Position numbers and translations under genes: made by a program
DNA from: Amphiscolops sp. MND2022
Taxonomy: Eukaryota
Direction: 5' to 3'
Length of the DNA stretch: 64,000 bases
Assembly: GCA_964187785.1 (NCBI GenBank)
Contig: OZ076409.1
Location: forward strand, 37,016,001-37,080,000
Shown here: one piece after another, positions 688 through 54,602 of the stretch
Numbering within the stretch: the first letter of the stretch is position 1
Layout of the letters: the number at the start of each line of letters is the position of its first letter
Notes under the pieces: generated by a model
Database searches by the model: none
What the model was told of the DNA's origin: nothing
Seen by the model: the letters and a program-made list of their open reading frames with translations, nothing else

Positions 688-2527
688 CAGGGCCCGGATT
701 TTCATGCGTAAAAAATATGCCAAATATGCGTAAAAACATGCGTAAAAAATCCTAAAATATGCGTAAAAATATGCGTAAAAATTTATTGGTTTTCATACAC
801 AGTATTATACCAATAGACACATAAATGGTGTTTCAAGTTTTCAATGGTAAGTGACATTCTTTGTGGAGTTTGAATTTGTCCCATTTCTGAGAAAACTCTC
901 TCTATATCGGCAGAAACCAGGGGTGCATATCGGTAAATTGGAGCATCTAGTGGTGGCACATCAGAACTGACTCTCTCTCCTCTCAGAATTTTTGCAAAAT
1001 CTTGCAAAATTTTAAAATCAGGATTTCGGGTTAAAACAGCATCGAGTTTCTCTTTATAGTTGTCGCCTTGTACGTTGACAATAACTTTCTCCAAAATAAC
1101 AAACTGATCACACAACGACAGTCGTCCCTGTAACTTCGTAATGGCCTCTGGTAAAAAATCGAAAGATGCAACTAAAAATGCCATTTCTTGCATGAGCGCG
1201 TTGTCCATGAGGTCCAAAATTTTCGTGATTTCTGAATTATTGGGTTCTTCACTTCCCAAGTGAATCAGAAATTGTTGAAATTCGGCAAAATACTTGGCGT
1301 AATAAAACACTGCAATTAGCCACGAAGACCATCTGGTGATAACAGGCACAGGCGGTAAGGGCAACCCTGTCAATTCTCGGAATAATCGTTGTCTGCGACT
1401 ACAATTGCAGAATAATTTTGCCACCTTCGATATGAAAAAATCAGTAGCAGAATTTGTGGATCGAACATTTTCTGCAAGCCGATTTAAACCGTGGGCTAGA
1501 CAGGTAATGTGTAGCAGTTTCGGGAATAAGCCTTTTAACAGCTTGCCTGCTTTAAGCATGTAACTGGCACCATCTGATACAAATAAACGAAATTTTGAAT
1601 AGTCCATCTCGTCAAAAATCGAGCAAAGACTCGAATTAACTATTTGGTTTATGGCTACAGCATCCGTTTTCTCAGTCTCAGCAAGATTAAAAAGCATTGG
1701 TGGCTTTAATTCGTTGTCTAAAACTCCAATTAAAACACCAACCAAAAATCTACCTGCGGGGTCTGTCGCTTCGTCTACCATAATGTAGTAATTTTTCCCA
1801 GTAACCGCCTCTTTAATTGCTGATATAACTTTATTGAACTGTTTCGGCAAATAATTCTTTCGAAGTGTAGACTCGTCTGGAGCTGCCTGGCCCGACCATG
1901 TCTCCAACAGGGATTTTACTTTTCGACATTGAAGTTTGTGAAATGGAATAGCTGCTGAGGTAAATGCTTCAGTAATATGATCAAAGAATTTGTTAGAAGT
2001 TTCATCCGAAAACTTAAGCGCATCCTGTCTCTTTGCATTTAATGATAACTGCCTTTTATGCCTGTCGCTATCTATATGCTGGTGTACTCGAAAATTAATG
2101 TTCGAAGCTGAATAATCGAAGCCATTAACACATAACTTGCAAACAATTTTGTTACTCGATTGCTCGTAATTCCAGTTTTGCATACCACCAGGCAATGTCT
2201 TCACATAGTCAGAACCGTGCAATTTGTGTTTTGGCATCTTGGACAAATGCACAGTAAGCAAGATCAAATGGCAATACAATACTGTAAACACTGAGAACGA
2301 ATAAAGCAGTGCCAGACAGACAGGCACCACATAACCGCAATGTTTGCTCACTGAAATCTGTCACACTCACATACACATTCCTGAAAGTAAATTGTCACTG
2401 CAGTCCAATTCCTTGTCAATTTTGGCTAAATATGCGTTAAGTTCATGAAAATATGCGCAAAAATAAATTTAGGCCAAATATGCGTAAAAACATGCGTTAT
2501 GAACTTCTCATATAAATCCGGGCCCTG
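688..2527 (-). mobile_element. Complete hAT-superfamily (CGGBP1-like) DNA transposon, 1,840 bp
   Basis: Perfect 14-bp TIRs CAGGGCCCGGATTT (688-701) and AAATCCGGGCCCTG (2514-2527). Perfect 8-bp TSD ATTGTGTT (680-687, 2528-2535). Subterminal ATATGCGTAAAAA arrays at both ends. Confidence 0.95.
783..2237 (-). CDS. hAT-type DDE transposase (CGGBP1-like), ~484 aa from the first ATG (MPKHKL...)
   Basis: Uninterrupted ORF. N-terminal zinc finger (CKLC...H.....RH), catalytic motifs YIMVDEATD and FVSDGASYM, CLAH (CxxH), TRW, and ADIERVFS. The ORF track starts upstream at a non-ATG codon (2351). Confidence 0.9.
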   Translation of the reverse strand: MPKHKLHGSDYVKTLPGGMQNWNYEQSSNKIVCKLCVNGFDYSASNINFRVHQHIDSDRHKRQLSLNAKRQDALKFSDETSNKFFDHITEAFTSAAIPFHKLQCRKVKSLLETWSGQAAPDESTLRKNYLPKQFNKVISAIKEAVTGKNYYIMVDEATDPAGRFLVGVLIGVLDNELKPPMLFNLAETEKTDAVAINQIVNSSLCSIFDEMDYSKFRLFVSDGASYMLKAGKLLKGLFPKLLHITCLAHGLNRLAENVRSTNSATDFFISKVAKLFCNCSRRQRLFRELTGLPLPPVPVITRWSSWLIAVFYYAKYFAEFQQFLIHLGSEEPNNSEITKILDLMDNALMQEMAFLVASFDFLPEAITKLQGRLSLCDQFVILEKVIVNVQGDNYKEKLDAVLTRNPDFKILQDFAKILRGERVSSDVPPLDAPIYRYAPLVSADIERVFSEMGQIQTPQRMSLTIENLKHHLCVYWYNTVYENQ

Positions 2528-6650: not shown

Positions 6651-7247
6651 GGGAGTGACAGATTTCGTCCCAAACAGATTTCGTCCCACATGGAAATTTT
6701 GACAGATTTCGTCCCACACAGATTTCGTCCCATTTTTTAACAATAAAACAGATTTCGTCCCATTTTTGACAGATTTCGTCCCAAATAATTATTGTAACGT
6801 AGTCAGCTATGTTCACATACCCCTAGTGCCCTAAATACAGGAGCGAAGCGAAGCGGAGCGACGTGCCATGTGTCGATGCCTCAATGTTGCTACTTGGCGA
6901 AGGGAGCGAAGCGACCGAGCCATACAACAAATATGCTAACCTCTTCAAAAAAATTAAGTTCCATACATATTGGCTGTAACAGCACCGAATGAAGAATCAC
7001 TGAATAGATTATACCGATTAGCGCTTAATTTTGTGTATAGCATAGAATAATTTCCCATACTATTAGTACTGTATATACTGTCAAAAATGGGACGAAATCT
7101 GTCTAAAATGGGACGAAATCTGTGTGGGACGAAATCTGTCAAAAATGAGACGAAATCTGTTAAAAATGGGACGAAATCTGTTTGGGACGAAATCTGTCAA
7201 AATTCGACGTGGGACGAAATCTGTCTGGGACGAAATCTGCCACATTC
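6651..7247. mobile_element. Mutator-type MITE / foldback element
   Basis: Left array of ACAGATTTCGTCCCA and inverted right array of TGGGACGAAATCTGT. Flanked by a perfect 9-bp direct repeat AAACATTGG (6642-6650, 7248-7256). Confidence 0.85.
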
Positions 7248-8050: not shown

Positions 8051-8475
8051 AACAAGCCAGGAACGGCCCAAGTCGGCGCCATATCTAAGGCTCAAAAGTA
8101 GCAAAAGGACTTCAATGTGTCAAGTATTCTCTTCTACAGTACCCGCGTGAAGAAAAAATCGAAAAAATTCCTAATTTTGTTGAAACTTTTTTTCGAAATT
8201 TTTTTTCGAATTTTTTTGGTCTCCGGTAAATCGCATAGTGTCGAAAAATGTAAAAGGAGGCCTTTGGGAGGTTTGAACATCCATACTTTTGCAAAAAAGT
8301 AAAGAAACGAAGGGGGGACCCTTTGGAGACATTTTAAAAATTTGCGAAAAAAAGTGTCACCAAGCCGAAAAACACCTGCACAATAAATATATTGGTCATG
8401 GGCGGGACTCGAACCCACGTCCTTCTGCTTGGCAGACATCAAAAACTATCCTAATTAACCTCTATGCTAAGTGGC
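8051..8475 (+). mobile_element. Helentron/DINE-1-like non-autonomous repeat, 5' part; split by the BEL insertion and resuming at about 16824-16935
   Basis: Begins AACAAG...AAGTCGGCGCCAT..., shared with copies at 18063 and 26059 (minus). GTGGC is duplicated at the BEL junctions. Superfamily assignment rests only on resemblance to the DINE-1 5' end. Confidence 0.55.
8395..8475 (-). ncRNA. tRNA-derived Pol III-promoter-like sequence inside the repeat (not a canonical tRNA)
   Basis: Minus strand: A-box TAGCATAGAGG (8469-8459), B-box GGTTCGAGTCC (8415-8405) within T-stem GTGGG/CCCGC, and hairpin TCTGC-CAA-GCAGA. No proper acceptor stem. Confidence 0.6.
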
Positions 8476-8645
8476 TGTTGACAAGCAATTGATAAGATTA
8501 AAAGCAAATAAGAATCGTTCCGTTTCAAGGTAGCTTGGCCTAGCGGTAGAATACAAGGCCGGACAGGTAAAATATTTCCTATTTCAGACAAAAGATCTAA
8601 ATATTTTTTCTTGATTTCAGTAAAGTAACCTTGAGAAAAGGCCTT
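8476..8645 (+). repeat. 5' LTR of the BEL element (truncated; matches only the first ~200 nt of the 3' LTR)
   Basis: Near identity to 16418-16615 apart from a 29-nt deletion between two CCGG. Similarity stops after GAGAAA(A)GGCCTT and no PBS was found. Confidence 0.8.
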
Positions 8646-8741
8646 TTTTCAAAAACGCTGATTTTTTGAAAAAAATCCTTGTGAACTTGCTGTTGACTCA
8701 ATAAGTTTTGCACTTAAATCAAATTTTACCTTGAAAAACAA

Positions 8742-9337
8742 ATGGTACTTATTGTAGCGGCTAGTTCCGTTGATCATGCTCTTGACACAATAAACCCCGA
8801 AAACCGAAAAACCTATAAACAGAAAATTTTCTCAATCCCACGAAAAATCCTCGAAAAATTGTGCAAAACTTGCTCTCTAAAGATCTTGCCGAAAAAACTG
8901 ACATCATTATTTGGCATGATGTGCTGAATAACAGTATGTCTAAACATGAGAGCAACAATTATCGAGCTTTACCAGTCCTACAATTGTTAGAAATTTTGAA
9001 ATCGATTGAAAATAAACTCCGGGCTCTAGTGTACTGCCACCGATTTCGTACACCGAACATTTATCAAACTTTCAAGGAATTAGAAAACTCCACGAACATT
9101 AAAGTGTTCAGCATCGTTGAAGATTTCATTTCCACGAGAAAACATAAAGATCCCGACTTTCTCAAGAAACTCAAGGCATTACACCAGAGCCCCGAGATTG
9201 AAATCAAACACATTGACTTCATTCTGCGCACCGAGAGCGAGCTTGACGCTATCACCGACAAAAGCCGCCCCAAGCGTCCCAGTAAGCGCGCCCGAAAGGC
9301 CATCAAGAGCGCAGCTGCCGCCGCTGCTTCGTCCTAG
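8742..9337 (+). pseudogene. Accessory ORF upstream of BEL gag, SGNH/GDSL-hydrolase-fold-like, one frameshift at about 8840
   Basis: ORF 8742 (MVLIVAASS...KIFSIP) joins ORF 8861 (..VQNLL..DIIIWHDVLNNS..ALH..) and ends in a basic tail KSRPKRPSKRARK. Motif spacing resembles SGNH blocks I, II, III and V. Confidence 0.55.
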
Positions 9338-9374
9338 ACCCCTTCCAACCGTCTTTACTGTACTGTAGTTACGG

Positions 9375-9530
9375 TGTCCGGACTTCATTGTCCGGTTGAA
9401 ATTCCTACAGTAGTTTACCCGTCTTCTTGAGTTGTGTCCGGACTTAACTGTCCGGTTGATACTCAGAAGTCTACTCCCCGTCTTTCTTCCTGCCGTTTGG
9501 ACGGTGTCCAGACTTTATTGTCTGGTTGAA
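9375..9530 (+). repeat. Three spaced copies of a 6-bp-stem hairpin in the BEL leader
   Basis: CCGGAC-ttcatt-GTCCGG (9378-9395), CCGGAC-ttaact-GTCCGG (9438-9455), CCAGAC-tttatt-GTCTGG (9508-9525). Confidence 0.85.
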
Positions 9531-9881
9531 GTTTTTTCGGCCTTCTTCCGCATCTTCAGCACTTAGTATTGGACGAACCATCATTTTTTTCGGGAAGAGC
9601 GTGTTTTTAAATCATCGTCTCGTCCCATGTAACTTCTCCCCGTGTCTTGTTACTATTTTTAAAAACAAAAAATTGAATTATTCCAATACCGTTGCTGTTA
9701 TCGCAAGATACAGCTTCCATCAACTCAACGCCCATACCGTTAACCCGAAATCTCTTTCGGTCAGCTGTGTCTAGGCTTAATTGCTTGGTTGACGCTGTCA
9801 AAGAGATCACTCCTCTATCTACCTTGAATAACCCGTTTCTCGCTACTTCAATTCATTCTCTAACAAAAGATCACGTCAAAG

Positions 9882-12800
9882 ATGACCGACACCAGACAAG
9901 ACAAAGTTAGAAAACTTTTCGAAAGTCGTGCCAAAGCTGAGACCGAGTTACAACGATTGCAAGAAAAAGTTCAAGATGCCGTGGAGAACAAAGACAGGCG
10001 AGTCCGAGTCGAAAGACTTGTTACTTCCTGCGATGAAGCAATGACGAAACTGTTTGTCAAACATGAACAACTTTTCGAACTCGCTGGCAAAACAGAAGAG
10101 CCATCACTTGTTAAACAAGATTTGGAAGCTTGGTTGAAGGAAGTGACCACTCGAAACAATGAGATCTTGAAGAAGGCTCGTGATTACATCGATCAATGCC
10201 CACTAGTCGATGGAGCATCTCAATCGTCAACGACTGTCACCAAGAGAAAGCAACCAAGCAAAACGTCAGCTTCAAGGACATCTAGACAATCGAGAACATC
10301 CAGTCAACGGCAACGAGACTTGCTAATTGCTAACTGCCAAGCAACGTAAAGAGGAGATAGAAAGGCAAAACGAAGCCGCCCTTAGAATTGCAAAGCAACA
10401 GCAGGAGCTGGAACTCGAACGTCTACAGGAAGAACAGGAACTACTTAGACTGAGGACCGACTGACTTAAGAAAGAACAAGCACTTCGAGTTGAACAGTTA
10501 GAAGAAGAAAACCGAAAGAAACTAGCTGAAGCAACACTCACTGAGCTTGAACTGACCGAGGACTTGTCGGACGCTCAATCGGAGTTTCTAGACACCGTTT
10601 CACAACTAGCGGCTTCGACTAAAGCTGACGATGCTGTCCGAGTCAGCGAGTGGGTTAACAATTCACCCGTTGCTAGTGCAAGTGATCCCACAAATACTGT
10701 AAGTTTGGAACCGAACGCCGTTATCGTCACTACTGCAACACAAAATTCAGTCAACAGAGGAGCTCCCACAACTAACCCTCCACCTAGTATCCCAGCAGTG
10801 ACTCCTATCGCCCCTCAAGCTGCGCCAACGATCAACAACATACCACTAGCTACAGGACCAGGTTCAATAGTTTACCTACCAAACACTGACCACGTCCAGG
10901 TTCCCCAGTCGACCACAACGCTTCAGGGGACAAATGCTCCATCGGTAACTGCTTCAGCCTCAGCTTCTTTGGCAACCGCCACGTCAATTCCGATTTCAAC
11001 AGTCACCGTTCCCGCAAGTCATGTTCTTCCGAATTTATCAGCCTGGACGTTTCTGACAGGACCAAGTAACCCGCCCGTGACAGTAAACCCAATAACTTCG
11101 AGCGCCACTGTGTTTCCGACAGTTTTACCGGCTACTAGTGTCGCCCCAACAGCTTCGCCTGTTATCCCAGTCTCCGCTGGAGGAACAGTATACTATATTA
11201 ACCCGACGTCTCTTGCAACTGTGCCCGCACCAAGCAGCGCACCAGTACCGACTACTTTCCCGGCCGTTCCTTCAACAGCAACACTATTGGCAACCCCTCA
11301 ATTCGTCAATGTACCGCAACCTGCAACCACCAGTTTCACTGTCCAAGATCTTGCGCAACTGTTAGCGTCATCGAAGAGGGACCACCTCCCAGAATGGAAA
11401 CTGGCCTAGTACAGTGGGGATCCACTTCAATGGCACGAGTGGTTCGGCCAGTTCAGGAGTGCCATCGATTCAGCACCCCTTACCGTTGATGTGAAACTGA
11501 CCTACCTGAAACCACTGGTGTCCGGTAAGGCAAAAACCGCTATAGCCGAGTTTGCGTACTGCTGTACTATGTACAAAGACGCGCTGAAAACGTTGGAACG
11601 AAAGTTTGGGCAACCTCAGACTGTTGTTAGTGCCTACCTCGACAAACTTGCCAACTATCCCCCAGTAAAGATGCACAATAGCGACAGTATCTTCAGCTTT
11701 CTGCCGCAGTTTCCTCACTGGTTGGTGTTTTCAAATCCTTGAACTACCTGCAGGATATGTCGAGTGCTTCTCTCCTGGGCCAAGCGGTTCAAAAACTTCC
11801 ACCAAATTTGAAGGAAGCGTGGTCGATGAACACCGTCAAACGGAATCTGGATCGGCTGACTTTGATTCACTTTAACGACTGGCTAAAAGAGAAAGCAGAG
11901 GCACACGAAAGAATGAAAGCCGCCTCCAGTAAACCAAGATCTGAAGAAGATCCTGTCACTACCGTAACCAAGACCATAACAGGAACCAAGGTCTTTGCGG
12001 CGACCACCAGTAACCAAGGAAACAGCGCTAGCAAGGTTAAAAGTGAGAAACAATGTGTAGCTTGCAAGGACAGTCACCCGCTTTGGCGTTGTACAGTATT
12101 CCGCCGAAAAACTCCGACAGAGGGAACCAAGCTAGCCGCTGAGATCAAACTTTGCTTCTCTTGTCTAAACGAAGGACATTCATTCCGGCAATGCCCGCAA
12201 CCAAGAAAATGCACAAAAGACGGCTGTAGCAGCTCTCATAACCCCTTACTTCACGGGTCCGACAGAATTTTTCCACAGAAAAGTCCCGGCGACGCGAAAC
12301 ATTCTCAACGTAAAACGACAAAGGTCAGCCAAAGACAAACAGGCAGCAAAAGCTCCGGCATGCATTCCGTAACCGACGACAAAGGCTTGTTGCAGATAAC
12401 AGAAGTCGAATTGACATCGCCGTCGAGCTCTGCTAAAATTCTTGCTTTATGTGACTCAGCTTGTAGTCATTCATGGATCTCGAGAAAATTAGCCGACAAA
12501 CTACAAGTTAAGGGCTCAACAACCAAGTTAACCGTACATGGGATAAACTCCCAAAAACTGATTGACACGGAAACAGTTGAGCTTAAGTTGACACCCGTTC
12601 ATTCAGGTGGCTCTTGTTCAGCTTTTCCTGTCACTCCTTACGTCCGAGACGATTTGAAAGTTGGAAACGACACTATCGACGTTGACAAACTGAAAACGAC
12701 TTACCCGCATCTGGAACCGATCCCCCTCAGCAAGTACAGCTATTCAGACGTTGAGATGATCCTTGGTCAGGATTTCTTCCACTGTATCCGCCCATTGGAG

Positions 12801-15800
12801 TACTTCGGAGCCGACCGTTCGAATACTCCAATAGCCGTCCGTTCACCGTTGGGTTGAGTACTCAGTGGTCCGCTTCCTTCCACCACGGGTCTTTTCTCGA
12901 CATGTTTCAAAGCTGTCGCTAGCACAGAGAATGATTCTATTCTTGCCGAACAACTTCGCAGCTGGTACGACATTGAGTCATATGGTGCCTACAAACAAGT
13001 TGACTCTCGCTCCGCAGCCGATGCGCGAGCGATGAAAATCCTCGAAGAGACGACATTCAACGATGGCTGCCGTTACCAAGTTGGAATGTTGTGGGCCGAT
13101 GAAGAAAGTACGTTGCCGAACAACTACTTCTCGACTCTTGTACAACTTAAGTCGTTAGAACACCGCCTTGGAAAAGATCCTCAACTGAAAGAGAGTTACA
13201 GCAAGACTATCAGAGAGGACTTCGAAAAAAGGTACATCGTTCGAGTCGATAAATCGTTCCAGTCGATAAATGTTTCCGTACCGATAACCGTCGTGAGTGG
13301 TACTTGCCACATCACCCTGTAGTACACTAACACAAACCCGGCGAAGTGAGAAGAGTTCTCAATGGTGCTGCAAAGTTCCATGGACACTCTTTGAACAACG
13401 CCCTTCTAACCGGTCCGGATCTACTGCAAAGTTTGATCCATATCCTCTTCAGGTTCCGTCAATTCCCCAAGGCCGTGTCCGCTGACATTGAAGGTATGTT
13501 CTTACAAGTGGGAGTTATACTGAAAGACCAACCGTCCATTCGTTTTTTGTGGCGGGAGGATCCATCAACTGAAGTTGCTGTTTTTCAGTACGTAAGACAC
13601 ATCTTTGGGTCGAAGGACTCTCTGACTTGCGCAAATTACGCTCTGAAGAGGACCGCAACCGACAACGCCGACAAATTTCCGAAAGCCGCTCAAAGCATGC
13701 AGACGAATTTCTACATGGACGACTACCTCGAGTCTAGTCCCACTGCCGACGAAGCTACCCAGAAAGCCAAAGACTTAGTGAAATTGCTTTCGCTGGGTGG
13801 ATTCAATATAACTAAGTTTGTGTCTAACGACAGAAACATCTTGCAACAAATCGAGCCAAATTCTGAGTGCCAACCCAACGATGGTAAACAGTTACCGACA
13901 ACTGAGGAATCATCGCACGTACTTGGCCTCAAATGGAACCACGTCCCAGATACACTTGTTGTTAGCCGAGGCACCACTCCCGACACAAACCGAACTGTTA
14001 CTCAACGAGTTGTTCTCAGCCTCGTCTCCGCCGTGTACGACCCTATTGGGCTCGTAGCACCGTACACCGTGAAAGCCCGACTTCTGCTGAAAGACAAATG
14101 GAGACAGAGCGGTCAGAAATGGGATGATCTTCTCCCGGAGGACATTGTAACCAAGTTTTTGGACTTGGAATTCTGAATTGGGAACTCTTAGTGAACTCGT
14201 GATCCCAAGAAGTTACTTCCAGCAACATGTCGAGTGTTTGGAGTTACATATGTTTGGTGACAGTTCGCAAGATGTCTTTAGTGCCGTAGCTTTCCTCAGA
14301 GGGAAAGTCAACACTGGAAATGGTTGTTCTACTGAAATAGACTTTGTGTTTGGCAAAGCACGAGTTGCGCCAATGAAAGCACTTACCATTCCCAAACTCG
14401 AACTACAGGCCGCGTTGCTCGCTGCGAGATTGAGGAACGAATGGCAACGCGCGCTCACTTTGCACATTGATCGAACATTTATGTGGACTGACAGTACTAC
14501 GGGTCCTTCAGTGGCTACATTCTCTTGAGAAACAGCCGGTATTCGTAGCAAACTGTGTTGCAGAGATACTCGAACTGACAACTACAGATGAGTGGTACCA
14601 CGTGCAATCCGCCGACAACCCTGCTGACGCCGGAACTAGAGGTTTGTCTGCCAAGACTCTTCTGCAAAGTAGTTGGTTAAATGGCCCTGAATTCCTGAAA
14701 ACAGATGAATGGCCCTTCAAGCTTTCCGAAGACTTTCGACAGAAACTGAAGCAAGTAAAACTGGATACGACTGACGAACTAGTTCCTAAGTCTTCTTCAA
14801 TGCTGTGCGAAACCCAAGTTGCAATTGTAAAAACTTTCGAGTGGCAGAAGTATTGCTCATACGAGAAACTCCTGCGCATTGCAGCCTATGTTTTGCGGCT
14901 CTCACCAAAGAACAGAGACTACAGGACTATCGCAGGCGCCATTATTGATCCGGCCGAACTTGAAAATGCCGAACCACCGCCTTTTCTACCTGAGTCAGGC
15001 GGAATCATTCCACGTTGAGAAAGTAGTTTGCTGAAGTCAACCCCGCTCAGTAAAATTTCAAAACTTGCGCAATTTTCTCCCTTCATAGGACCCAACGGGC
15101 TCCTTAGAGCTTCTGGTCGAACAAAAAACCTTGACGTTGCAACCTTCGATGTGAAACATCCCATTCTGTTGGACGCCCGACATCCCTTGGTTCGACTCTT
15201 GTTAGAACACACGCACGTTCAACATTGTCATCAAGGTGTTGACTACCTGCGCGCTCTGATACAGCAACGCCTTGCGGTGGTAAAACTGCGAGCAACTTTG
15301 AGAACAATAGTTTCGAGGTGTGTTACATGCCGCAAGCGAAGGGCTGAAACCATTGCTCCAGTGATGGCGGACCTCCCGCGAGAAAGACTTGCTTTCAAAG
15401 AACCCCCTTTCTCGAACACAGGTGTAGACTATCTCGGACCCTTCTTTGGAACCGTGAGGCGGTCCACTGAAAAACGTTGGGGATTCCTTTTCACATGTCT
15501 CACCACTCGCGCTGTCCACTTCGAAGTAGTACTTAGCATGGACACCAGTAGCTGTGTGATGGGAATAGAAAAATTTTGCGCCCGTCGTGGAACCCCATGA
15601 GTAATCTGGTCCGACAATGGAACAAACTTCGTTGCTAGCGATAAAGAACTTTTGTCCAACATCAACAACTGGAACCAGCAAGTCCTCGGAGAAACACTTG
15701 TAAAGAAAGGCATAAAGTGGAAGTTTAACCCACCAAGTGCTCCCCATCACGGAGGTGTTTGGGAACGCCTAGTTCGGAGCTTCAAGCTTGTTTTTTATGC

Positions 15801-16301
15801 CGTTTTAGGAAACCGCCGTTTGACAGACGAAGTCTTGACGACCACGTTCTGCTTGGTAGAACCATGTCTCAATGCTCGTCCAATCACTCCCGTGAGCCCT
15901 GAAGCTACTGACCTCGACGCTCTCACACCAAACCACTTTCTACTGGGAACTGCCAGCTCAACATTGCCATCACACTTCCGCCCCGAAATAGACCATCGAA
16001 AGCGATACGTTCGAGCTCAAGCGTACTCAGACGCAATTTGGAATCGTTGGCTCAAGGAGTACGTTCCAAACCTCAACCGTCGCTCCAAATGGTCCAAGTC
16101 GTCAGACCGAGACCTGAAACCGGAGATCTCGTCTGATTAGTCGAACCGACCGCACCAAGAGGACACTACCCACTTGGTCGCGTAGTGAAGTTAAATTACG
16201 GCACCAATGCCATCGCCGGTTCAGCCGAAGTCAAGACATCTACCGGAAACCCAGTTGTCAAGCTCGCTCCCGTTCTCCCCATTCCCGAACAAACTATATA
16301 A
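9882..16301 (+). pseudogene. BEL/Pao gag-pol polyprotein, disrupted by many stops and frameshifts
   Basis: Coiled-coil N-terminus; capsid-like region (LPEWKL..YSGDPLQW); CCHC knuckles at about 12055-12245; protease LCDSACSHSWI; RT (ADIEGMF, FYMDDYL); RNase H (HMFGDSS, TIPKLELQAA, NPADAGTRG); integrase (H..H, CVTC, GVDYLGP, SDNGTNF, GGVWER). Confidence 0.93.
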
Positions 16302-16417
16302 TTTTGTTTTTGCTTCATTTCACCGTACATTATTTACATTATTATATTTCTTGTAACATGTAAAAAAAGTTTTTATTTGATTGACCCGTTTCTTCACATC
16401 TTCTTGGGCCCGGAGGA

Positions 16418-16823
16418 TGTTGACAAGCAATTGATAATATTAAAAGCAAATAAGAATTGTTCCGTTTCAAGGTAGCTTGGCCTAGCGGTAGAATACAAGG
16501 CCGGTATTCGACCGGCCTAGGTTCAATTCCCGGACAGGTAAAATATTTCCTATTTCGGAAATAAGATCTAAATATTTTTTCTTGATTTCAGTAAAGTAAC
16601 CTTGAGAAAGGCCTTGCTATTTGTGTTACTGTTGTTTGTAATTGTTGTCAAATATTATTTAATCATTTCGTTTTTTTTGCCGCTTTACATATAATAATTT
16701 GATTGCCTTTGTCATCATTGTGGATTCGAAACTTGATAGAAATTGGCCTCAAATAATCAATTGTTAACTGCCCTTGTTTTGAAAAACGATCTATAGAGAC
16801 CGACCATTCTATAGTTATCTTTA
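16418..16823 (+). repeat. 3' LTR of the BEL element (~406 bp; ends TA rather than CA)
   Basis: Follows the PPT, matches 8476-8645 and is bounded on the right by the TSD GTGGC. Confidence 0.75.
16471..16540 (+). promoter_or_regulatory. tRNA-like internal Pol III promoter within the BEL LTR
   Basis: A-box TGGCCTAGCGG (16478-16488), perfect 8-bp hairpin AGGCCGGT-attcg-ACCGGCCT (16498-16518) and B-box GGTTCAATTCC (16520-16530). Confidence 0.65.
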
Positions 16824-19160: not shown

Positions 19161-19672
19161 TACCGAAAAGCCAAAGGGTTCCCTTTGATGTTTTTTTTTG
19201 GCACTGTTCGACTTTTGTTCTATTTTTTTTCAAATTGAAGCCCTTTTGATTTTTAGAAGGAACAAAGCTTCTTACCAACATAGAGACCTCCTTTTTTCAG
19301 GCACTGTGCGACTTAGCAAAGGAATATTTTATCACAAAATTTTAAGGTTTTCGAGGTTTTCTGTTAAGAAAGACCGATTTCCGAGTCTTTAGGGGGACCT
19401 GTTGAAACCTCGGTGAGACTGATGAAAGTTGTGAGCCTAAAGGGGCCCACCTTTGAGTAATTTCGGTAAGTTGCGTCTTGTTTTCGTATCAAACTTTTCC
19501 AAAAATTCGCATCTGGTTTTTGCGATCTTTTCAGTCAAATTGTAAGAGTCATTTTTAACCCCTCCGAAAAAGTTTGTTGTAACAGTATACGAAAGAGATC
19601 GCAGTGACACTGCTCCTTTTGTTGGTGATTAGTTTCAAGTTGTTTTTCTGGTAGTACTACGATTAAATTAGG

Positions 19673-20643
19673 CGATTACCAGAAATTTCGTCGTCGGAAA
19701 TTTCGTCGTCAAAATTTTCGTCGCGAGAAATTTCGTCGTCGGAAATTTCATCGTCGGAAATTTCGTCGTCGGAAATTTCGTCGTCGGAAATTTCGTCGTC
19801 AGAAATTTCGTCGTCAGAAATTTCGTCGTCGGTGATTACGTTCTATAAAACGTCGCATTTTCTTTTATCTATTAGGAACCGTCTAATTATTGAGTCTTAA
19901 TAATTATCGATAACTGTACAATTATTACTATCATTGACTACTTTCTGTTATGGTTTTGAGAGAAAAGTAGAGAAAACCCCCCAATGCAATGGATAGGATT
20001 ATGTCGACATCAATTATTTCATTGGACCAAAGTTTCAACGCAAACGATGTCGACATTATGGTATTTGAACCTTCTTGTTTTTTATGGTCTTATTTACCTC
20101 GACGCAGTTTGGGTGGAAGATGACATGGTCCAAAATTCCCCCCGGAGCAAGCTTGAATTGTTTTGTAAAGCCCCGGTTTAAACAAAATGTTTCAGACCTT
20201 ATCCCCCCAGATACACCTTGTTTCTCATTTCCCAACACGAAGTTGTTTCGACACTTAAAGCAAAAATTATCATGATTTTTTGATAATTTTCTGACGAAAA
20301 GCAAAAATTCCCCCTGGAACAAGCTTGAATTGTTTTCCACCGGTAGGACGGAAAATAAACCATTGCTCAATAAGAGTCTTGATGAGTTGATTGAATGCAA
20401 TTAACTTTTTGACTCAATTTTGGTGTCAAAATGAAATTTGTTCCTGAGATCTCATTTTAATAATTAAATAATTGAATAATTCAATTGATATCTTTTGGTG
20501 AACACTGTTATTCTAATCAATACGACGAAATATCTGACGACGAATTTTCTGACGACGAAATTTCTGGATTTGCTATTACGACGAAATTTCCTACGACGAA
20601 ATTTCTGACGACGAAATTTCTGGCGACGAAATTTCCGCCTCCC
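19673..20643. mobile_element. Foldback/Mutator-like MITE with 15-bp subterminal arrays
   Basis: About 10 copies of GGAAATTTCGTCGTC at 19681-19830 and inverted GACGACGAAATTTC copies at 20522-20636. AATTAGG flanks both sides (19666-19672, 20644-20650). Confidence 0.8.
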
Positions 20644-21094
20644 AATTAGGTTACAGTGGAAATTGACTTCCAAGACGCATTTGAATACTTAAACAGTCTG
20701 GTGAAACTACTAATGACTCTGGGGTGAAACGATTTTACAGTAAAATGGGGTTAAACAAAGACACACCAATTCAAGAGCTACCTTGGCTTCAATTTCTCAT
20801 ATCCGACACTTTAGGGTATTTTTCGCCTCTCAAATGATAGCCATACTATGAAACATGTTGGATCAATTTATGGCTTTTCTTTGAAACCGGTTTTCTTGGT
20901 GATTTGTAAAGACTTTTTTGAGTGCAAATATTTCGAAAACAGTAGAGAAACATAATTGCCGTCAGAAGTTGTTTCCCAGCTACAGAATATTGATAGGTTC
21001 CCGTTTCTGAATATTGTTCTTTGCAGCAATGGATCCTTGTGTTAAAACACGAATTTAGGTGCTGTTTTCCAATCAATGCTCAAGTCAAAAACGT

Positions 21095-21515: not shown

Positions 21516-21745
21516 AAAAAGCAAATTTGTCAAAAAAGGAGAATTATTCAATTCTAAGTTTTATTGCGTCAATTTTCCTTGCGCGTGAAGGTTTGTGGGT
21601 AAGTGTCATGATGAGAAGATAGATAGGCTAGTTAACAATGATCTATATTATTTTTCATTCTAGATAATATCATTTTGATTTGAATTCAGTAACTCGGGGG
21701 ACAAAACGAGTCGCTTTAATCAAGAAAGATGAACTCGTTACGTAC

Positions 21746-22013
21746 CTGTGATTAGACTGCAAGTAATTAGGGGTAAGATAAGCATCTTGAGCATACGCAA
21801 CATGATTTCTCCCGGGAATTTCAACACGTAGATGGTGTAAGGTTCCGGCTCGTACGATCTAAGGGCAAATCCGACAATTGCGCCCAGCAATACGGCTAGA
21901 ATTGTGAGATACAACAGAAGATCGTCCAGGAAAAAGTCTCTGACTTTCTGCAGGGCCGTTTTTGGGGGCTCGTTCTTCTCGGCCTCTAGGTCATCGGCTC
22001 GGTTTTCTCCCAT
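21746..22013 (-). CDS. SLC1A: First coding exon of an SLC1-family (excitatory amino acid / dicarboxylate:cation symporter) transporter
   Basis: MGENR...LLYLTILAVLLGAIVGFALR...FPGEIMLRMLKMLILPLITCSLITG is the EAAT TM1-TM2 signature. Splice donor CAG|GTACG follows SLITG (GT at 21745-21744), where SLC1A genes typically have an intron. Confidence 0.92.
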
Positions 22014-25000
22014 CTTTATTTTCTAACTGTCACGATAATACGGCACAGGAAAATAGGTGGAAAAAAGCAAACAATTCTGGTAAGTTATGGAACGGTGAAA
22101 ATTAAATATTTGCTCTAAATGTTGGAAATGTTGTTTATGGGACTGTTGTAAGAGAGAATAAATTCGGTGATATTGCAGCTAGCAATTTGGTTGGTCGATA
22201 TCTGCGCAAAATTGTAAGAAATTGGAAGGGATCGCTGCGAGATTGAAAGGAAGGAGGATCTACAAAAAGCAGGAAAGAAGAGCAATCGCTTCAAGAACAG
22301 TTGCAGCGGTAATACCAGCAGTAGTTATAGTAATATTTTCAGTAATAATATTATTATAACCAAGTCAGCAGCGTACACAGATTTGTGACGGAGAAAAGTA
22401 ATGGCAAATATGAGCTGTTTAGGCCAATCTGATGGGAGCTGCCTTCTTTTCCTTTTTTCTTCTCCTTCGCCTTCTACTGATTAAAATCACGGCAAGCGGC
22501 GGAGCAAGCAGTAACAGGAGTAAAAGCTGCAGCAGTTATTACAGTCTGATTACCTCACTCCTCGTTCTTAGTTCCTCCAGTACTGAATACTTTTAGTGGT
22601 GATGGTGGCAACTGCGCTGCTTCTGCTAATGGTGGTGGTATACTACTTGGTGGCGTTACTTGGTACAGCTGATGGCGACGGTAGTTTTGCACCGGTCGGT
22701 GGAGACGAAGAATTTATACTACTCGCGATTGTAGCACCGATTGCAAAATGATAAAGGTGTTCTTTACCGTTGGGATAGATTGAATTAAATAAATAAAAAC
22801 TGAGATGAGCTCAATTGCTGAGCGAGCAGAGGATATATCTTCTTGAAGAAGCTGGGAGAGAAACACACAAGAGAAAGCACAATATAGAATGTAAGGAAAC
22901 GCACACGCACACGCACGGTTTTTCTTTTCACACTTGAGTTTTCTTCTTCTTACGATGAATTTTGATTGAAGGAAAATTGTTTTATTTGAGACAACAACAG
23001 CCAAGACCTTTGGTCATTTTCGTACCACAGAGCAGGAGATAAGAATTTATAAGTAACTTCACAAGCCCACAAATGTAATAGAGGAATACCCAACAAGATT
23101 ACGATTAAGAACTTCTGCAAAAGTAAAAATATAAACAGTAGGACACGTTTTTCTGCACTTGAGGGTTTATGTTCAAGTTGAAAGATGAAAGAGCTTCAAC
23201 CTGAGAACTTGTTCCATCGGTTAAGCAGGGTAGAGGACTGTAGAAGAAGTGTTTGATGTCTGAAACAACACAAAATTATCTCAACTTTCGGAGATAACTA
23301 GTTGTCTGACCGGTCAAACCGACTCCGGTCGAAAACTGCGTCTTGATGAGATGATCAGAAGGATCTCAAGTATGACCAAGTTGCAGAATTACAACTTTAT
23401 ACATTAGTTCAGTATAGGGTAATTTAATTCTGTAATCAAAATTCACTAAAGTAGTTAATAGGAACCATTCACTAGTTCTTCGGCCTGATTTTACGGTGAT
23501 AAAAAGGCACGTTATGTTTTGTTTTTGAGCATGAGGTGTTTCTCAACTAGAAAGCGAAGCGGTAAAATCACAGAGGTTTTTATGGCTTTGAAGTTTCGGT
23601 GCTCTCGGAAAAGTTGAATGAAAGACCCAGCATAGTATGCAACTTTCATTTTCCTTTCATTTTTTCTATGTCCACCTATGTCCAAATGTAAATTATCTCC
23701 CAAATCAAATCATGCCAGAGGACTGAATGACGTTTGAAAAACTTGTGAACTAAACTTCCTCAAATAAATAAATTCCGGAATGAAATCCTTTATATGAGCA
23801 CTTCGCAATTTTGCTTGTTCCTACTTATAAAACAGACAATTTAATTTCGATCTAGTTTTATATAAAGTATAGTTTCGATATAGTTTTATATTTATCCAAT
23901 CAAAGAAAGAGTCGTAGTCCCGAAAAAACTTGTCGGGGCACCTTCTGAAAAACACTCGGTTAAAAAGTGCAACACCGTTTTGCATTGATAATTCTTCAAA
24001 CTAAGAACCTCAAAAACTACTAACTTGAACAATCCATATAGTATAGGAGATTCGATCAATTTATGAAAGTTCTTAGTTCCTGTTCTTTTGTTCCTGAATT
24101 TTAAAACGTATTTAACTGCAAACACGTTTTTCGCAGAAGAGAGCATCTTCAACAAGAATTGATATGAACACAGAGCAAATATACCAAATTACCGGTAAGT
24201 AATGTCAAAACCGGGAAATGTGTTTCGTACTTGCATGTTTTTTTCTTAACACTCCCAAAAAACTGTTTGTGTTGCAAAATTCTTTTGAGATGCTCAATGT
24301 ATGAGTCATTTTTAAATCAAGACATAAGAGAAAATAAATGTTGAAAAAAACTCTTTCACAAATGAAGCTGATTGAATGAGCGCGTTATCCACAGAATACC
24401 ACTACAAAAATGTATGATCGTAAAATATTCATTTGTGGAGAATTTGAACCATGAAAAAAAGAGCCCAGAACCGCCGAATGTTTAAGTTTCGACTGTTTTA
24501 AAGCAAAATTGGTATACTGTTTGAACGCTTTTGTGGGTATTGTTAAAATGTCTAAATCGAGGTTATACCGTATGATGTGTCGGTATCAAAAATGAAACAA
24601 ATGAATCAACTCAAACATGTACAATAATACAATAAAATGAAAATTGATCCAACTAATTAATTTCAGTTTGTTAGCCAACAACTCAATGACTGTTTTCTTC
24701 ATATTGGTGTGACCTTCGCATGTCACATCCCACCTCTGATTAAGATCGGTTGTTTGGGGTATTCGGTGATAACTCCGTATATTACGGTTTACACTGTAGT
24801 TATGTGTAATGGTCCGTCTGATACAGTTTTCTTGTTCCTCACAGTCTGTCTGTGGTCTGGTCTGGTTGCCCTGTAAGACATCACAGTTAGACAGTTGTCT
24901 GTTTTCCTTTTATTGATGTAGTAGGGTACGCTGCCTAGTCTTTAGGATTGTTTTGCAAATGGTAGTCTCTGACTTTTTTTACAGGTACTGTAGGTCCATT

Positions 25001-29227: not shown

Positions 29228-29888
29228 TCTGCGAACACTATATGCCAAAACAAAACACTTACCACAGCCGAGAAATTTTCTTCTGGGTGAAACAAGAGGT
29301 TGGCGAAATACCCGAAGAAAACTGGAAAACACTAACACCATCGGAAACAAGCTCTGTCACTTCAAAAAGATAAAACAAGACCTACTCGAGGCGTCTCATC
29401 AATAGTAAAACTGACAAAAGTATCCAGCAAAAAATAATACGTGGAAAAACCCTGAAAATCAAATCCGTGGAACTTATCACCCAAAGCAATCACGAACAAC
29501 GACACACTTCTACCATACCTCCCGCACTTCTGATATATACATATGTAATTAAATTTATATTATAATTATATTTGTATAAATATAAGAAGTGCGGGAGGTA
29601 TGGTAGAAGTGTGTCGTCGCTCGTGATTGCTTTGGATGATAAATTCCACGGATTTGATTTTCATGGATCTTTCACGTATTATTTTCTGCTGGAAATTTTT
29701 GTCAGTTATACTAATGATGAGTCGCCTTGAGTAGGTCTTGTTTTATATCTTTGAAGTGACAGAGCTTGTTTCCGATGGTGTTAGTGTTTTCCAGTTTTCT
29801 TCGGGTGTTTCGTCAATCTCTTGTTTCACCCAGAAGAAAACTTCTCGGCTGTGGTAAGTGTTTTGTTTTGGCATATAGTGTTCGCAGA
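29228..29888. repeat. Inverted duplication with ~304-bp arms and an almost purely A/T spacer
   Basis: 29228-29531 is the reverse complement of 29585-29888 with scattered mismatches. The ORF track shows the peptide CEHYMPKQNTYHSRE..FWVKQE on both strands. Confidence 0.92.
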
Positions 29889-36726: not shown

Positions 36727-37410
36727 ACCTCAGGACCGCAAAACTGATTTGTTCGATTTGGAATGGGAAAGTTCAATTTCTTTAAAAACTGCGTTGAGTC
36801 TAAGTTTGTCCTGAACTGCTACGTAACAGGTACCTGTAAAAACTGATAACGAAAATAACGAGAAATTTAATGGTAATAAGACCTCGGGAATTGATTAGTG
36901 TGTTTTGCCATATAAGGTTATCGAATCTTTTTCGACCTAGACTAAATCTTAATCCCAACAGTAAACTCCATCTTATCATTGGGTTGTGTTCCGGATTTTG
37001 ATTTTACATCAGTCTCGGTAGACATAACATTTAGTCCATACTCTGTTTCCTTATATGGAAATTATAAAAACCCATACTATGATCATACCATAACTTGAAT
37101 GTTTTCATATAAGCTCATTGCATGAACTAAAAGTTTTATTTATTCCCTTTATAAGAACTAAATGTTTTATTTATGGTCATTGAATTAAACTAAATGTGTT
37201 ATATACGGTCATTATACACCAATTTTTTTAAAGTGAAGAGCATTCTAATTTAGTTGAATACCGAAGCGGAGTTGACAGCCAATTGAAAACGACTTAAAAC
37301 AAAGGCAAATCAATTCCAAAACAACTGAAGCAAGTTATATTTCAAGTGAATCTAGTAAAGAATTAACAAACTTGCGGAAGCCAATGAAAAATTCAGCCAA
37401 CTCAACCTCA

Positions 37411-38129
37411 TGTAACGTCCGGCTAGCGGCGCACATCCCGGAAGTGGGACAATGCCTAGGGTGCTTAAACAGGAGACCGTTGTCTTACTACACTCCTAGA
37501 CATTGGCTTCTCTCCCAAAATGGTCTCCATGGGGGACTTTTCTAACGTCTAAGGAGGCTCCTCTAGTTAGAGCTCCGAGGCGACGTGCCGGCACTCTCAA
37601 AGTCCGGACACGCCCCACAAACCTGTAAAAACGTTCCTACACAATCCTAAGCCTTCCTACGACTTCCTACATACTTCCGAGGTCCAAAAAGTGTTTATCC
37701 AAAAAATACCATTTTGACAGTTAAGGATATGAAATGCTGACCTAGAAGGTCAGGCATAAGCGAAACAGAAAAATATATTACAAATCAACAAATTAAGGGG
37801 GACGAGCCCCAAAGGGGAGTACAGTTACTGTTTGTAGGTTTTCGGGAATCCAGTCATGTCATTCTGGAACGGTTTTGCATTCTCTCCCTGAGGGATGGCA
37901 TAACACCGGGTAGCACTCGTCACATTCGGCTCTGTGCGAATCTTCGTGTCAATAGTCATTCTGCTCTCTGATTCCTTTCTTCTTTGCTCTTTTTTTGCGT
38001 GTTCTCTCTCTTTTTTTGTTTCCTTTTTGGTTTCAACGACCTGCCAGGTCGGCCATTTTGATTCGCACACTTTCTGGTTCTTGATCGAATTTTTCATCGA
38101 AAATTTGGTGCTGACTGGTGGACGTTACA
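37411..38129 (-). repeat. 3' LTR of the large gypsy element
   Basis: Direct repeat of 54603-55321, adjacent to the PPT. Confidence 0.96.
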
Positions 38130-38729
38130 TCCTCCCCGGGCCGTAGTTTGTCGTCCTCGGCAAACGAGAGGATGTTCGCACCCAAAGGGTACTCTGAGAT
38201 TTACACAAAAAATCTTACATCAGAGCTGAACTAAATTGATCTCACATTACTATTCTTTTCGTTTCGTTACTGCATGTTTAGCATTCCAAAGCCATCAAAT
38301 TCAAAAAGCACTAGTTTCGAGGTTAAAAACTCTACAGTCGGCTCTTTTTAAAAAAAGAAAGAAACTTTTTCACTAATCACTCAGTCCAAGTTAAAATTTC
38401 TTTTTCTAAAATTGAGCCCCTGCGCGGCCAGGTGAGTAACAACAGCTTTTGGGCTTAGTAGAAGTTTTAAATTCAAATCAAAACGGGAGGGTACCGAACC
38501 GGGACCCGCCCAGAGGACATAGCTATATCGTATTGTTGCATTGGCAGCATAGTAAAGTAAATATCAAACAAAAAAAATTTCGAAATCAAACTTCATTGCA
38601 CCGAAAGTTTTCAGCACCAGTGAGATAGCGTAGCATAACTAAAACCAAAAGTTTGCACCAATGTTTTGACGATAAGGTCTTCTGTGCTTTACAGTATTCC
38701 AGTGGTCTAGGAGGGTCCAGAGGACTCCT

Positions 38730-41700
38730 TTACCCCAACAGCTGATCTTGTGGGGCTTCCTGCGTGGAAGTGCTGGCCAAGGTGTTCACTGTATTTTGGA
38801 CGGCCGAATCGGGCGCCTCGGAGGGGGGCGATGATTCCTCATCCATAGTCAGTAGGTTGTTAAGCTCCGACTCTATATCCGCCGCCTCCATGTTTGAGAT
38901 ACTAGTCTCCGCTTCGTCTCTTACAGGGGTAGCGGCATCAGAGAGTGTGAAATTGTCGGTCATGGGCTCCTCTGATGGTGGCATGACGTTTGAGATATCG
39001 TCTTGTACCCCTTCCATCAATGACTCATCGGTGTCTTGAGTGAGGTGGGATGTGGGAGGGACGGTCTGGGGGCTGCCAGAGGCAGCTTCGCCCAACCCGC
39101 TAGTTCCCGGGATAGCTTCGGTTGGCTCCAGGTTTGGCAGTCCGTCCGCCAGTTCTTGATGACCATGCTGGGTGAATAGCTGCTTGAATGTTCGTATTCC
39201 CCTAGCGTACTCTTCGCCTACAGCTCGAGTCTGTTCTCGCTGGAGACCATGCAGGCGCACGAATATCTCTAGCGCAATGCGCGGGTTACTGGGAACGTCT
39301 GTGCTCACGGGCAGGTCCTTCCTGTTGGGTTCTCTCGCTACAGTTGGAACAGTCGTTAGCAGCTGTTGAAAAGTCTGGTGGATGGCGAGGTCTACGAGCT
39401 CCGGCTGGGCCCAGCACGTGATGGTATTTAGAATTCTGGCGGTATGATCACGGGGCTCCGCTCTCGCACAGTATACCCTGGAAGTGTCGCATGCATAGGG
39501 ATATAACAACCCAGTGGGCTCCTCTCCTTTCCGGCGACCACCCAATCTTTGGATAATCGTACTCAAGATGCGCAAGACAACTGGCACGTCCCACCCATCG
39601 AAAGTTGCCACTGTTCCATTGTTTGGGTTAAGGGGGGCATGTAGCCAAGCGACCGGGTGGATTTCCATTGGCAGTGGGAGCGAGCTGCGTGCTCGCGCTT
39701 TGATCGTCATTAGGTAGTTGTGCTCCACCTGTTGGCGGTCTTTGATTATGGTGTATGCCATGGGAGGTCGCAAGTTGGCGAAGTTGCGTATTCTTGATTG
39801 ATAGGTGGGACCCTGAAGGGGCCCATTGGAGGTCACGAAGTGTAGAATTGAGAGCGATGGGGCTACTGCAGCCACTCGCAAGGCCTGCGTGGGATACCGC
39901 AAGGCCATAACTGCGCCGAAGATGGGCCAGATTATAGAAGCGATGAGTGGGATCAGGTCCTCTGTTTCCACGAGCATCAATGTTGCCATTTGTGTCGGGA
40001 ACAGGAACCCTGGAAGCTGACTGGGGTCTCGGTTGATAGCCGGGCACTCATCCAGAGGATGCATGATGCCAGCAACATTGACCCAGGTGGAATAAATCCA
40101 CACCAGGAGAGCTTGAATGTTCAAATCTAGTTGCGCTTTCAACTTCAAGGAACCCACCGGGTCCAGAGTTTCAATAAGCGCATATATCCAGCTCCTTTGA
40201 TTTTGCGAAAAGACCAAGAAGCTGAACAGGGCTGAGCCTCCTTTGTTAAGCACGAGTTTCTGTATGAGGGATGACGGTCCTCGGTACATCATAGTCAACC
40301 CCACGGCCATCAAATATGCTAGCATTTCGGTGATGGTGGCTCTTTCCATGGCGTCCATGTACAAGCGCATCCGCTGCTCATCTAGGCCGTACTCGGCCTG
40401 TACTAGGGAGGGAAGACAGAAGGGAGAGATGTTGTGAAGGAACACAGGAAATGGTATGCCTAGCCGCTCCGCGACTTGGCTTAGAGGTTCCCGCAGTTGG
40501 TCGTGCCATGTTTGGTACGTGTGTGTTGGCTCTCGAGTATTCCTTCGTTCGATATCTTGGGCCAGTATTGACAGCATGGCTAAGGTGGGTGATCTTAGCC
40601 CAGGTTCAGCGTCCAACGACACTTGCGCTATAGGGAAGATGGACGAGTACTTCCTATCGCCTTGAATCGTTTCAGTTTTCTTCATCAGGCTCGTGAGTTC
40701 TTTGTGGAACTTGGGTTCGTGCGTCTTTTCATCCAGGGTGGATTCATCTCGGCGTTCAAACCAGAGGTTATCCACCAGGATATCACGCTCATTCTCGTTT
40801 GGGTCATTTACTATCCGGTCTCCGCGCTCGTTCATCGATCGACGGGCCATTTCCATGCCATAGTCGAACGCTGTGGCCTCATCTATTATCATTTGGGAAT
40901 TGCCGCGGTAACCAACGTATGACTGGAGGGCCTTGGAGACTTCGGCGATGAAGGCCGGGTATGAAGCTTCGCAGGGACGCCAACTGTTGTTATTGATGCG
41001 TAGGTTGGGTGCCACAATGTAGAAAGGCAGATCTCTCGCATATGCGGCCTCCGTCACTAAGTACAAGAATTGTTGATGGGTTCGGGGAAGGTATACGTAG
41101 CCTGGAGGTGACATAAACACTGTCCCAGTGGTGGCTTTCTTTCTGCGCATGGCTTGGACAATGTTGGCCATGATCTCTACATAGTTAGTTACCTCGTCAG
41201 TGACGAACCCCTCGGTGAACCTCTCATGGTCCGGCCGGAAGAATTCCAGGGTGCCCCGCAGAGCGAGGTGGTCTATCACGTTCGAATACACCAACAACGG
41301 AGGAGGTGGGATTGTCTCTGTTCCCGCTTGGGTGAACATTTTGTCAGTCACCTCGGCCATCTCGTTCAGTGTGGTACAAGGCATATTCAGTATTCTGACA
41401 TCCATGAGGGTGTTGTGGGAATTGAAGGAAGACTTCATCGTCGAGTCGACGAAGAAGGCTATCCTAGTTTTCTGTAGGAGGTCCTTTCCCATGGGCAAGA
41501 TTGTAACAGGGTCCCGCGCATAGTTCTTGGTTCGCAGGCGGTCTTCGTCAAAGCGGCCAGGGCGCTGTCGGAGGAAGCTGTCGGGAACACGCATGTACGT
41601 TGAGTTTACTCTCTCCAGTTCTGCCCGCATGCATTTGAACCATGGGGGGCATCCGTCCCGAGTGAACACGGGTTTCTTGACGGGGCGATTGTAGAGTACT

Positions 41701-54568: not shown

Positions 54569-54586
54569 ATCCCTCTGTGGTCGCCA
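54569..54586 (-). promoter_or_regulatory. Primer-binding site (tRNA-Arg-like)
   Basis: Minus strand TGGCGACCACAGAGGGAT. Its complement ATCCCTCTGTGGTCGCCA looks like a tRNA 3' end with CCA, resembling metazoan tRNA-Arg(UCG). Confidence 0.75.
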
Positions 54587-54602
54587 TAAAAACTATTCCA
54601 GA

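Follow-up and report, generated by a model that had tools for sequence, protein, structure and literature searches.

The window, i.e. the whole 64-kb stretch of DNA analysed, contains a BEL/Pao LTR retrotransposon ~8.1 kb long, gag-pol included (Table 1). It was recognised from Peptidase_A17 (13331-14173), Integrase_H2C2 (15019-15597) and DUF5641 (15601-16137) domains lying between direct repeats, and the nearest Atlas clusters have both Peptidase_A17 and RVT_1. BEL/Pao is a metazoan group and, as the window also holds an exon of a host SLC1-type transporter (sodium:dicarboxylate symporter family; 21741-22022, minus strand), it is clear that the host is an animal. Close to the start of the LTR of this element is a short cassette resembling a tRNA-type RNA polymerase III (Pol III) promoter, and the gag-pol body adjoining the cassette LTR was read in the window's copy.

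Table 1. Features of the BEL/Pao element, its LTR cassette and the adjoining tRNA-like unit (positions in the 64-kb window)
Feature	Position	Strand	Remarks
Degenerate tRNA-Gly(GCC)-like unit	8394..8476	-	A box 8469, B box 8415; in the flank, separate from the element
5' LTR, TGTT...AACA	8476..9865	+	~1390 bp; start firm, end putative
A box of 5' LTR (8536-8546) and CCGG junction of 29-nt deletion	8536..8562	+	Same deletion and flank in P0147
SGNH/GDSL-fold accessory ORF	8742..9337	+	Frameshifted near 8830-8840; two frames by tblastn
gag-pol	9882..16298	+	Decayed, several stops and frameshifts
Polypurine tract adjoining 3' LTR	16406..16417	+	Same tract next to cassette LTR in 6 other copies
3' LTR	16418..16615	+	Truncated at ~16615, where matching to 5' LTR ends
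tRNA-derived segment	16471..16541	+	71-nt short-variable-loop register; boxes kept, cloverleaf lost; gap-free with tRNA-Gly genes
A box of type-2 Pol III promoter, TGGCCTAGCGG	16478..16488	+	Compatible in 10/11 other copies
8-bp hairpin between boxes	16498..16518	+	Arms 16498-16505/16511-16518; 5-nt loop
B box, GGTTCAATTCC	16520..16530	+	Compatible in 11/11 other copies; both detected changes at a free position
T6 run	16575..16580	+	First Pol III terminator past the boxes, 45 nt after B box

The 5' and 3' LTRs are identical at 164 of 169 aligned bases, apart from a 29-nt gap. A correction to an earlier, sequence-only reading of this DNA is that the 3' LTR is cut off where its match to the 5' LTR stops; beyond the equivalent point, sequence of the 5' LTR does not recur within the 64-kb window. 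With the 3' end of the 3' LTR lost, the target-site duplication is unreadable. The TG start and the polypurine tract are present, while the CA end at 9865 is probable: a similar end sequence occurs in L001, a metagenome locus encoding a distant relative of the accessory SGNH ORF, with 14 of 500 shuffles scoring equally. Three copies of one other subfamily (P0160, a 3' LTR, and P0154 and P0161, 5' or solo LTRs) have ~40 codons in common past the point where our 3' LTR breaks off, and the LTR is therefore longer than 200 bp. No TGG-type primer site was found after the putative 5' LTR end. Instead, A-led sequence follows this end both in the window (9866-9884) and in L001 (83-99), with nine letters common to the two.

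The sequence-only reading described an A box, a perfect 8-bp hairpin and a B box at tRNA-like spacing near the start of the 3' LTR, and all were located as claimed. The first ~45 bp of this LTR are A+T-rich, and it is here that TFIIIB would bind. When the 64-kb window was scored with the generally known consensus strings of the two boxes, two A+B pairs at 25-100 nt spacing were seen, against 0.095 (loose B box) or 0.0 (strict B box) expected from 200 composition-matched simulations. The description of the 5' LTR was equally accurate: its A box is kept and exactly 29 nt are missing between two CCGG, the deletion having taken the hairpin loop, its 3' arm and the B box.

The second A+B pair in the window is part of another tRNA-like unit, which is separate from the element, lies on the minus strand and abuts the 5' LTR. 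This tRNA-Gly(GCC)-like unit has a good T arm, is called by ARAGORN only at threshold 80, and has its expected first base at the start of the 5' LTR, the two standing head to head. Targeted insertion of the element at Pol III genes, an idea prompted by this unit, was considered and rejected, as a B box is incompatible with all five of the other 5' or solo flanks (four distinct, 69-291 nt).

Of the sequencing runs screened for the sequence, one contained 6% of its words, and contigs from that run left the cassette uncovered; no RNA run was among the matches. Other copies of the cassette were recovered as spurious antisense ORFs. As gene callers sometimes predict such ORFs over repeats of this kind, the open antisense frame of the LTR was used as a protein query. 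It retrieved P0146 and P0147 (both of two candidates, and the same two out of 914), and then 11 representatives and three further cluster members. The count of copies used throughout (n = 11, all on other contigs) excludes two matches to tRNA genes and also P0147, which shares the 5' flank and the 29-nt deletion of the window's copy and is therefore an allele or duplicate of this insertion. Six of the 11 copies continue into the purine tract of our 3' LTR and five into unrelated DNA (four distinct flanks), the latter evidently being 5' or solo LTRs. The copies fall into several diverged subfamilies. The peptides fix 44 of the 72 cassette bases, third codon positions being hidden, and a copy said to fit is one that is compatible. 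As the search needs an in-frame peptide across the cassette, frameshifted or cassette-less copies are mostly invisible to it, and sampling of this type gives no share of the family that carries the cassette.

Conservation of the boxes across LTR copies had been proposed as a check on the sequence-only reading and could be followed in these peptides. Both boxes fit at equal spacing in 10 of the 11 copies, where an A box, 31 nt and a B box are compatible in 3' and in 5' or solo LTRs alike. The outcomes which that reading had set against itself, unconserved boxes or a SINE in a single copy, were not what was found, since 10 of 11 copies fit. Insertion of a SINE into the window's copy only was likewise rejected, the 11 intact non-tRNA matches all being located at an LTR start, and the 64-kb window containing the cassette nowhere but in the LTRs. 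An ancient SINE origin of the cassette is possible. P0146 is identical to the window's 3' LTR at all 21 cassette codons. It follows that the family is characterised by an intact cassette and that the 29-nt deletion is later than the insertion. No A+B pair was found at the metagenome loci L001-L003 (all with distant SGNH relatives), whose likeness to the LTR start is at chance level, or upstream of a second, decayed BEL element in the window. The cassette is therefore a trait of a clade and not of all BEL/Pao. Searches of viral and prokaryote contigs with the SGNH or RT protein yielded nothing that could be confirmed. The cassette is a family trait and not a one-off SINE insertion.

The changes that have accumulated in the cassette avoid the promoter consensus. 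With shared changes counted once, 20 distinct changes were detected in the 21 cassette codons, one of which breaks the consensus compared with 6.2 expected (P = 0.006). Five changes lie within the boxes, one breaking the consensus and four being at free positions or to allowed letters (P = 0.002); 40 of the 47 in-box changes that could be detected would break it. This test of box positions is the least exposed to sampling bias because the search used no promoter information.

Spacing is also maintained. The distance between the LTR start and the A box is 51-60 nt (16-19 codons) in 10 of 11 copies, and there are no indels between the A and B boxes in 10 diverged copies, compared with 24 indel events in the 47 nt before the boxes and 16 in the 54 nt after them (summed over related copies), a contrast inflated by the choice of copies for peptide similarity across the cassette. 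Divergence of the flanks at the peptide level results partly from small indels. Five diverged peptides reach past 8645 of the LTR and could not be aligned there above shuffles, while P0147 aligns. The boxes and their spacing are thus apparently under selection as a trait of the family, and the 10 of 11 copies that fit, with changes that avoid the consensus, support a maintained Pol III promoter. The sequence-only reading, by which the family may make a small Pol III RNA or use TFIIIC binding as a promoter or insulator, is supported in this part. The stretch between the boxes is conserved as well (16-18 of 21 codons in diverged copies), suggesting that the RNA is also of importance.

The cassette derives from a tRNA. 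In the tRNA register its stems keep 3/7 acceptor, 2/4 D, 2/5 anticodon and 4/5 T pairs, while the same stems of five real 71-nt tRNA-Gly genes have 7/7, 3-4/4, 5/5 and 5/5. Identity to these five genes is 0.61-0.72 in the A-box region and 0.65-0.82 in the B-box region, but only 0.29-0.38 between them. The peptide search, which is unbiased in this respect, gave as its only non-LTR matches (2/11) antisense readings of tRNA-Gly(CCC) genes, with gap-free alignment. A box-derived pattern matched 49 viral loci, at 47 of which ARAGORN places a tRNA; 17 loci have exactly the box spacing of the cassette and 10 of these are Gly, in a search biased by its own pattern. DNA patterns taken from the cassette matched 0 and 2 loci in viral contigs and one bacterial locus, these three being without a tRNA. 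A functional tRNA was rejected, as cloverleaf pairs are broken, ARAGORN makes a call only at threshold 70 or lower and there is no Rfam tRNA match. Nor did ARAGORN and Rfam match the cassette at normal thresholds, and no known RNA family reached its Rfam gathering score. The tRNA register also rules out the 8-bp hairpin as an anticodon arm. The cassette is evidently tRNA-derived, yet it is no tRNA.

Type-2 promoters work through TFIIIC, which recognises the two boxes and places TFIIIB, including TBP, ~40 bp upstream of the start site. We propose that an ancestor of this BEL/Pao clade captured a tRNA-derived segment of tRNA-Gly-type geometry, either directly or via the head of a SINE, within 120 bp of the LTR start, and that the clade has since retained it as a functioning type-2 Pol III promoter, whose bound complex keeps the LTR start open and insulated. 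We give this reading a probability of roughly 45%, while it is likely that the Pol III promoter works in some role. TFIIIC on the A and B boxes would bring TFIIIB (with TBP) onto the A+T-rich beginning of the LTR, and the 51-60-nt distance leaves room for TFIIIB inside the LTR, so that the promoter would be self-contained. Pol III would start near 16460-16470 and terminate at T6, and the RNA would be ~110 nt long (110-119 nt is predicted for a T6-terminated transcript). The 8-kb genomic RNA would still have to come from Pol II. The feature under selection, which is the least certain step, would be the promoter complex itself, holding the LTR start open and insulated at any insertion site, with the short RNA a by-product or serving a second role. 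Loss of part of the cassette from the window's 5' LTR would represent post-insertion decay by slippage between the CCGG repeats.

The promoter may alternatively work for the sake of its product, a structured Pol III RNA of ~110 nt which might, for example, act as a decoy in small-RNA silencing or give rise to small regulatory RNAs. Several properties of the segment between the boxes favour such a role, and still we regard it as rather unlikely. From 16489 to 16497 just one of 69 informative positions is mismatched across copies, and the inner 6 bp of the hairpin fit 8 of 11 copies while its loop is the most variable part (9 of 40 mismatched). The predicted RNA also has a better fold than shuffled sequences (z between -1.9 and -2.8, depending on start site), and foamy viruses, whose LTRs carry miRNA cassettes transcribed by Pol III, provide a precedent in the sections of Kincaid 2014 (PMC3993851) that describe them. 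However, 9 of 11 copies cannot form the two outermost base pairs of the hairpin; the perfect 8-bp hairpin of the sequence-only reading, although present in the window's 3' LTR, fits as a whole in only 2 of 11 other copies and is a subfamily state rather than a family feature. The covariation check suggested for it gave no compensatory change that could be read, third codon positions being hidden in the peptides. In addition, the stems are far below the length of miRNA precursors and match no Rfam family.

Beyond the B box, a T5 run is possible within 12-46 nt in 10 of 11 other copies, possible meaning no more than compatible with the peptides, and a 12-nt indel distinguishes the subfamilies towards the 3' end of the predicted RNA. 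A 54-nt GT...AG intron (16539-16592), which would excise the T6 run, was rejected because its donor GT and acceptor AG are absent from the other main subfamily. The LTR head can also be drawn as a 145-nt multibranch fold (16465-16609) with a 13-bp closing stem (16465-16477/16594-16607; z -3.5 with hand-chosen ends). As this fold extends past the T6 run, only a transcript made by Pol II could adopt it, and the fold was set aside as lacking compensatory support in other copies.

A stronger form of the proposal, in which the BEL/Pao clade swapped its U3 promoter for a Pol III promoter and the complex both sets the genomic RNA start and shields insertions, is unlikely. If true, it would give a coding element a hybrid Pol III/Pol II LTR, the short RNA might also serve the element, and such LTRs would be a possible source of Helenus-type TRIMs without SINE insertion.

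The cassette could also be a neutral passenger, namely a captured SINE head or tRNA pseudogene whose conservation reflects a G+C-rich, low-indel stretch together with detection bias. Detection does favour intact cassettes, and the B box has been lost from the 5' LTR of the window's copy. The degenerate unit adjoining this LTR shows that tRNA-like sequences occur in the genome, and SINE insertion into an LTR is given as a proposed origin in the account of Helenus by Kojima 2024 (PMC10886601). Neutral change, however, would not spare the fixed positions of a promoter, and the adjoining parts of the LTR covered by these peptides can no longer be aligned. With the cassette confined to LTRs in the window besides, a passenger is quite improbable.

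Cassandra and Ajax are non-coding TRIMs with 5S rRNA-derived Pol III promoters in their LTRs, as outlined for them in PMC10886601. The present element resembles both in having the promoter of a small-RNA gene within the LTR. By analogy with the mechanism described there for Cassandra, Pol III might transcribe from the 5' LTR the genomic RNA, or that of a shorter non-autonomous derivative with the same LTRs, and the promoter does lie at the extreme LTR start, where a genomic transcript would begin. In contrast to Cassandra, whose Pol III genomic RNA comes from a 5S-derived promoter in a non-coding element, such an RNA is unlikely for the present element. In addition to the T6 run, which follows the B box by 45 nt, the sense strand of this decayed copy has 33 runs of at least 4 T, 15 of them of at least 5 T, which makes a Pol III genomic RNA unlikely; T runs are not depleted in gag-pol (5 observed, 3.1 expected). 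The element is also 8 kb long, compared with the 311-1263 bp stated for Helenus (PMC10886601). The comparison with Cassandra made in the sequence-only reading thus stands for a Pol III-type promoter in the LTR and fails, because of the T runs, for a Pol III genomic transcript, and this explanation is highly improbable.

That the cassette RNA is a self-encoded primer of reverse transcription, pairing through its Pol III oligo(U) with the A's after the LTR end, is barely credible and was rejected on pairing: it would account for the missing TGG-type site after 9865 and the similar A-led sequence of L001, but the best duplex between the 3' LTR and the primer-site region is interrupted and reaches only -10.4 kcal/mol, antisense matches between the predicted RNA and the element do not exceed 10 nt, the longest being located elsewhere, and primer-site pairing is described as absent from Helenus too (Kojima 2024, PMC10886601).

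Foamy-virus cassettes are the best precedent in an autonomous element, and Helenus is a closer precedent than Cassandra. Among BEL/Pao elements, Cer7 of Caenorhabditis elegans reportedly carries its own, intact tRNA-Gly gene, which has been proposed as its primer. By that account it and the present element have in common BEL/Pao membership and tRNA-Gly-related sequence; here there is no cloverleaf and no primer-site pairing.

According to the sections on Helenus (TRIMp3) in Kojima 2024 (PMC10886601), the LTRs of this group contain tRNA-derived sequence in which boxes A and B are conserved and tRNA function is unlikely. Helenus elements are presented there as short, non-coding TRIMs linked to Gypsy or Copia and thought to be wholly Pol III-transcribed, with autonomous partners expected to use Pol II promoters. 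The same source mentions tRNA-like parts in 'not a few' of the LTRs in Repbase, eight being TRIMs and the rest undescribed. Like Helenus as portrayed in that source, the present element has tRNA-derived A and B boxes in its LTR, without tRNA function or pairing to a primer site. Unlike Helenus, it is an 8-kb gag-pol BEL/Pao element containing T runs that would stop Pol III. It therefore has the boxes within the LTR that mark Helenus and, at ~8.1 kb with gag-pol, not the short non-coding size.

The foamy-virus cassettes reside in the long U3 of the LTR and are expressed, as set out in the sections of Kincaid 2014 (PMC3993851) cited above. The likeness lies in an autonomous retroelement that has A/B-box units and terminators in its LTR beside Pol II transcription. 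The BEL/Pao cassette differs in its tRNA register, its position 51-60 nt from the LTR start and its short stems. LTRs of Sinbad are described with Pol II motifs in the sections of PMC554778 that deal with them. The available portions of that paper, PMC7084138, PMC10309623 and PMC3286476 contain nothing on a tRNA-type promoter in BEL/Pao LTRs, and no report of one was found in the literature, Repbase entries and most subscription papers being outside the scope of the search.

LTR promoters of this type have thus been known since 2024 for tiny non-coding elements, as described in parts of PMC10886601, and here one is found in a coding BEL/Pao clade with a signature of selection. This allows a direct test of whether a Pol III promoter complex aids transcription of a Pol II retrotransposon or its escape from silencing, and suggests a second possible route to Helenus-type elements. 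With 289 distinct relatives of the accessory ORF alone, LTRs of this kind could spread numerous TFIIIC sites across the host genome.

The accessory ORF, which precedes gag and probably lies inside the ~1.4-kb LTR, starts ~200 nt after the cassette. Many of its 289 homologous proteins are 202-205 aa long, and 119 of the 120 relatives among the matches listed are from ENA or the window itself, most on long contigs. A predicted model of one relative (P0002, mean pLDDT 59.8) is structurally similar to SGNH hydrolases, the best match having a Z of 9.5 and an rmsd of 3.1 (141 residues aligned). Foldseek gave no match to the model at E ≤ 0.001 and no Pfam family passed its cut-off for the ORF. Overlapping peptides provided no convincing link between cassette subfamilies and SGNH subfamilies. 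At L003 a distant SGNH relative (242-823) lies upstream of a purine tract (~1045), that is, as an internal 3' ORF, and the position of the SGNH ORF therefore differs among relatives. In rotifers, Vesta elements are reported to have a GDSL/SGNH esterase as ORF3 of retrovirus-like LTR elements, in the part of PMC5408684 devoted to them. Thus an SGNH-fold accessory ORF in an LTR retrotransposon is common to both, while in the BEL/Pao element it is upstream of gag and probably within the LTR. Just past the SGNH ORF are three imperfect palindromic repeats of 31-33 nt, spaced 60-70 nt apart (9371-9533); L001 has two repeats of different sequence at the matching position.

The window contains several other mobile elements. 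An unusually long Ty3/Gypsy-type element of 17.5 kb (37399-54890, minus strand) has 300-bp LTRs that are 97% alike, a 1409-aa ORF (38730-42959) and other long ORFs without a Pfam match; no A/B pair was found in its LTRs. The second BEL/Pao element (~58000-64000) is heavily decayed and has 24-42% amino-acid identity to the first. A 525-aa ORF with DUF659 (783-2360, minus strand) is presumably a hAT-type transposase. Repeats resembling MITEs or foldback elements are found at 29228-29888, where 312-bp inverted arms stand 37 nt apart, and at 6655-7243 and 19667-20653, where two elements have inverted arrays of 15-21-nt units.
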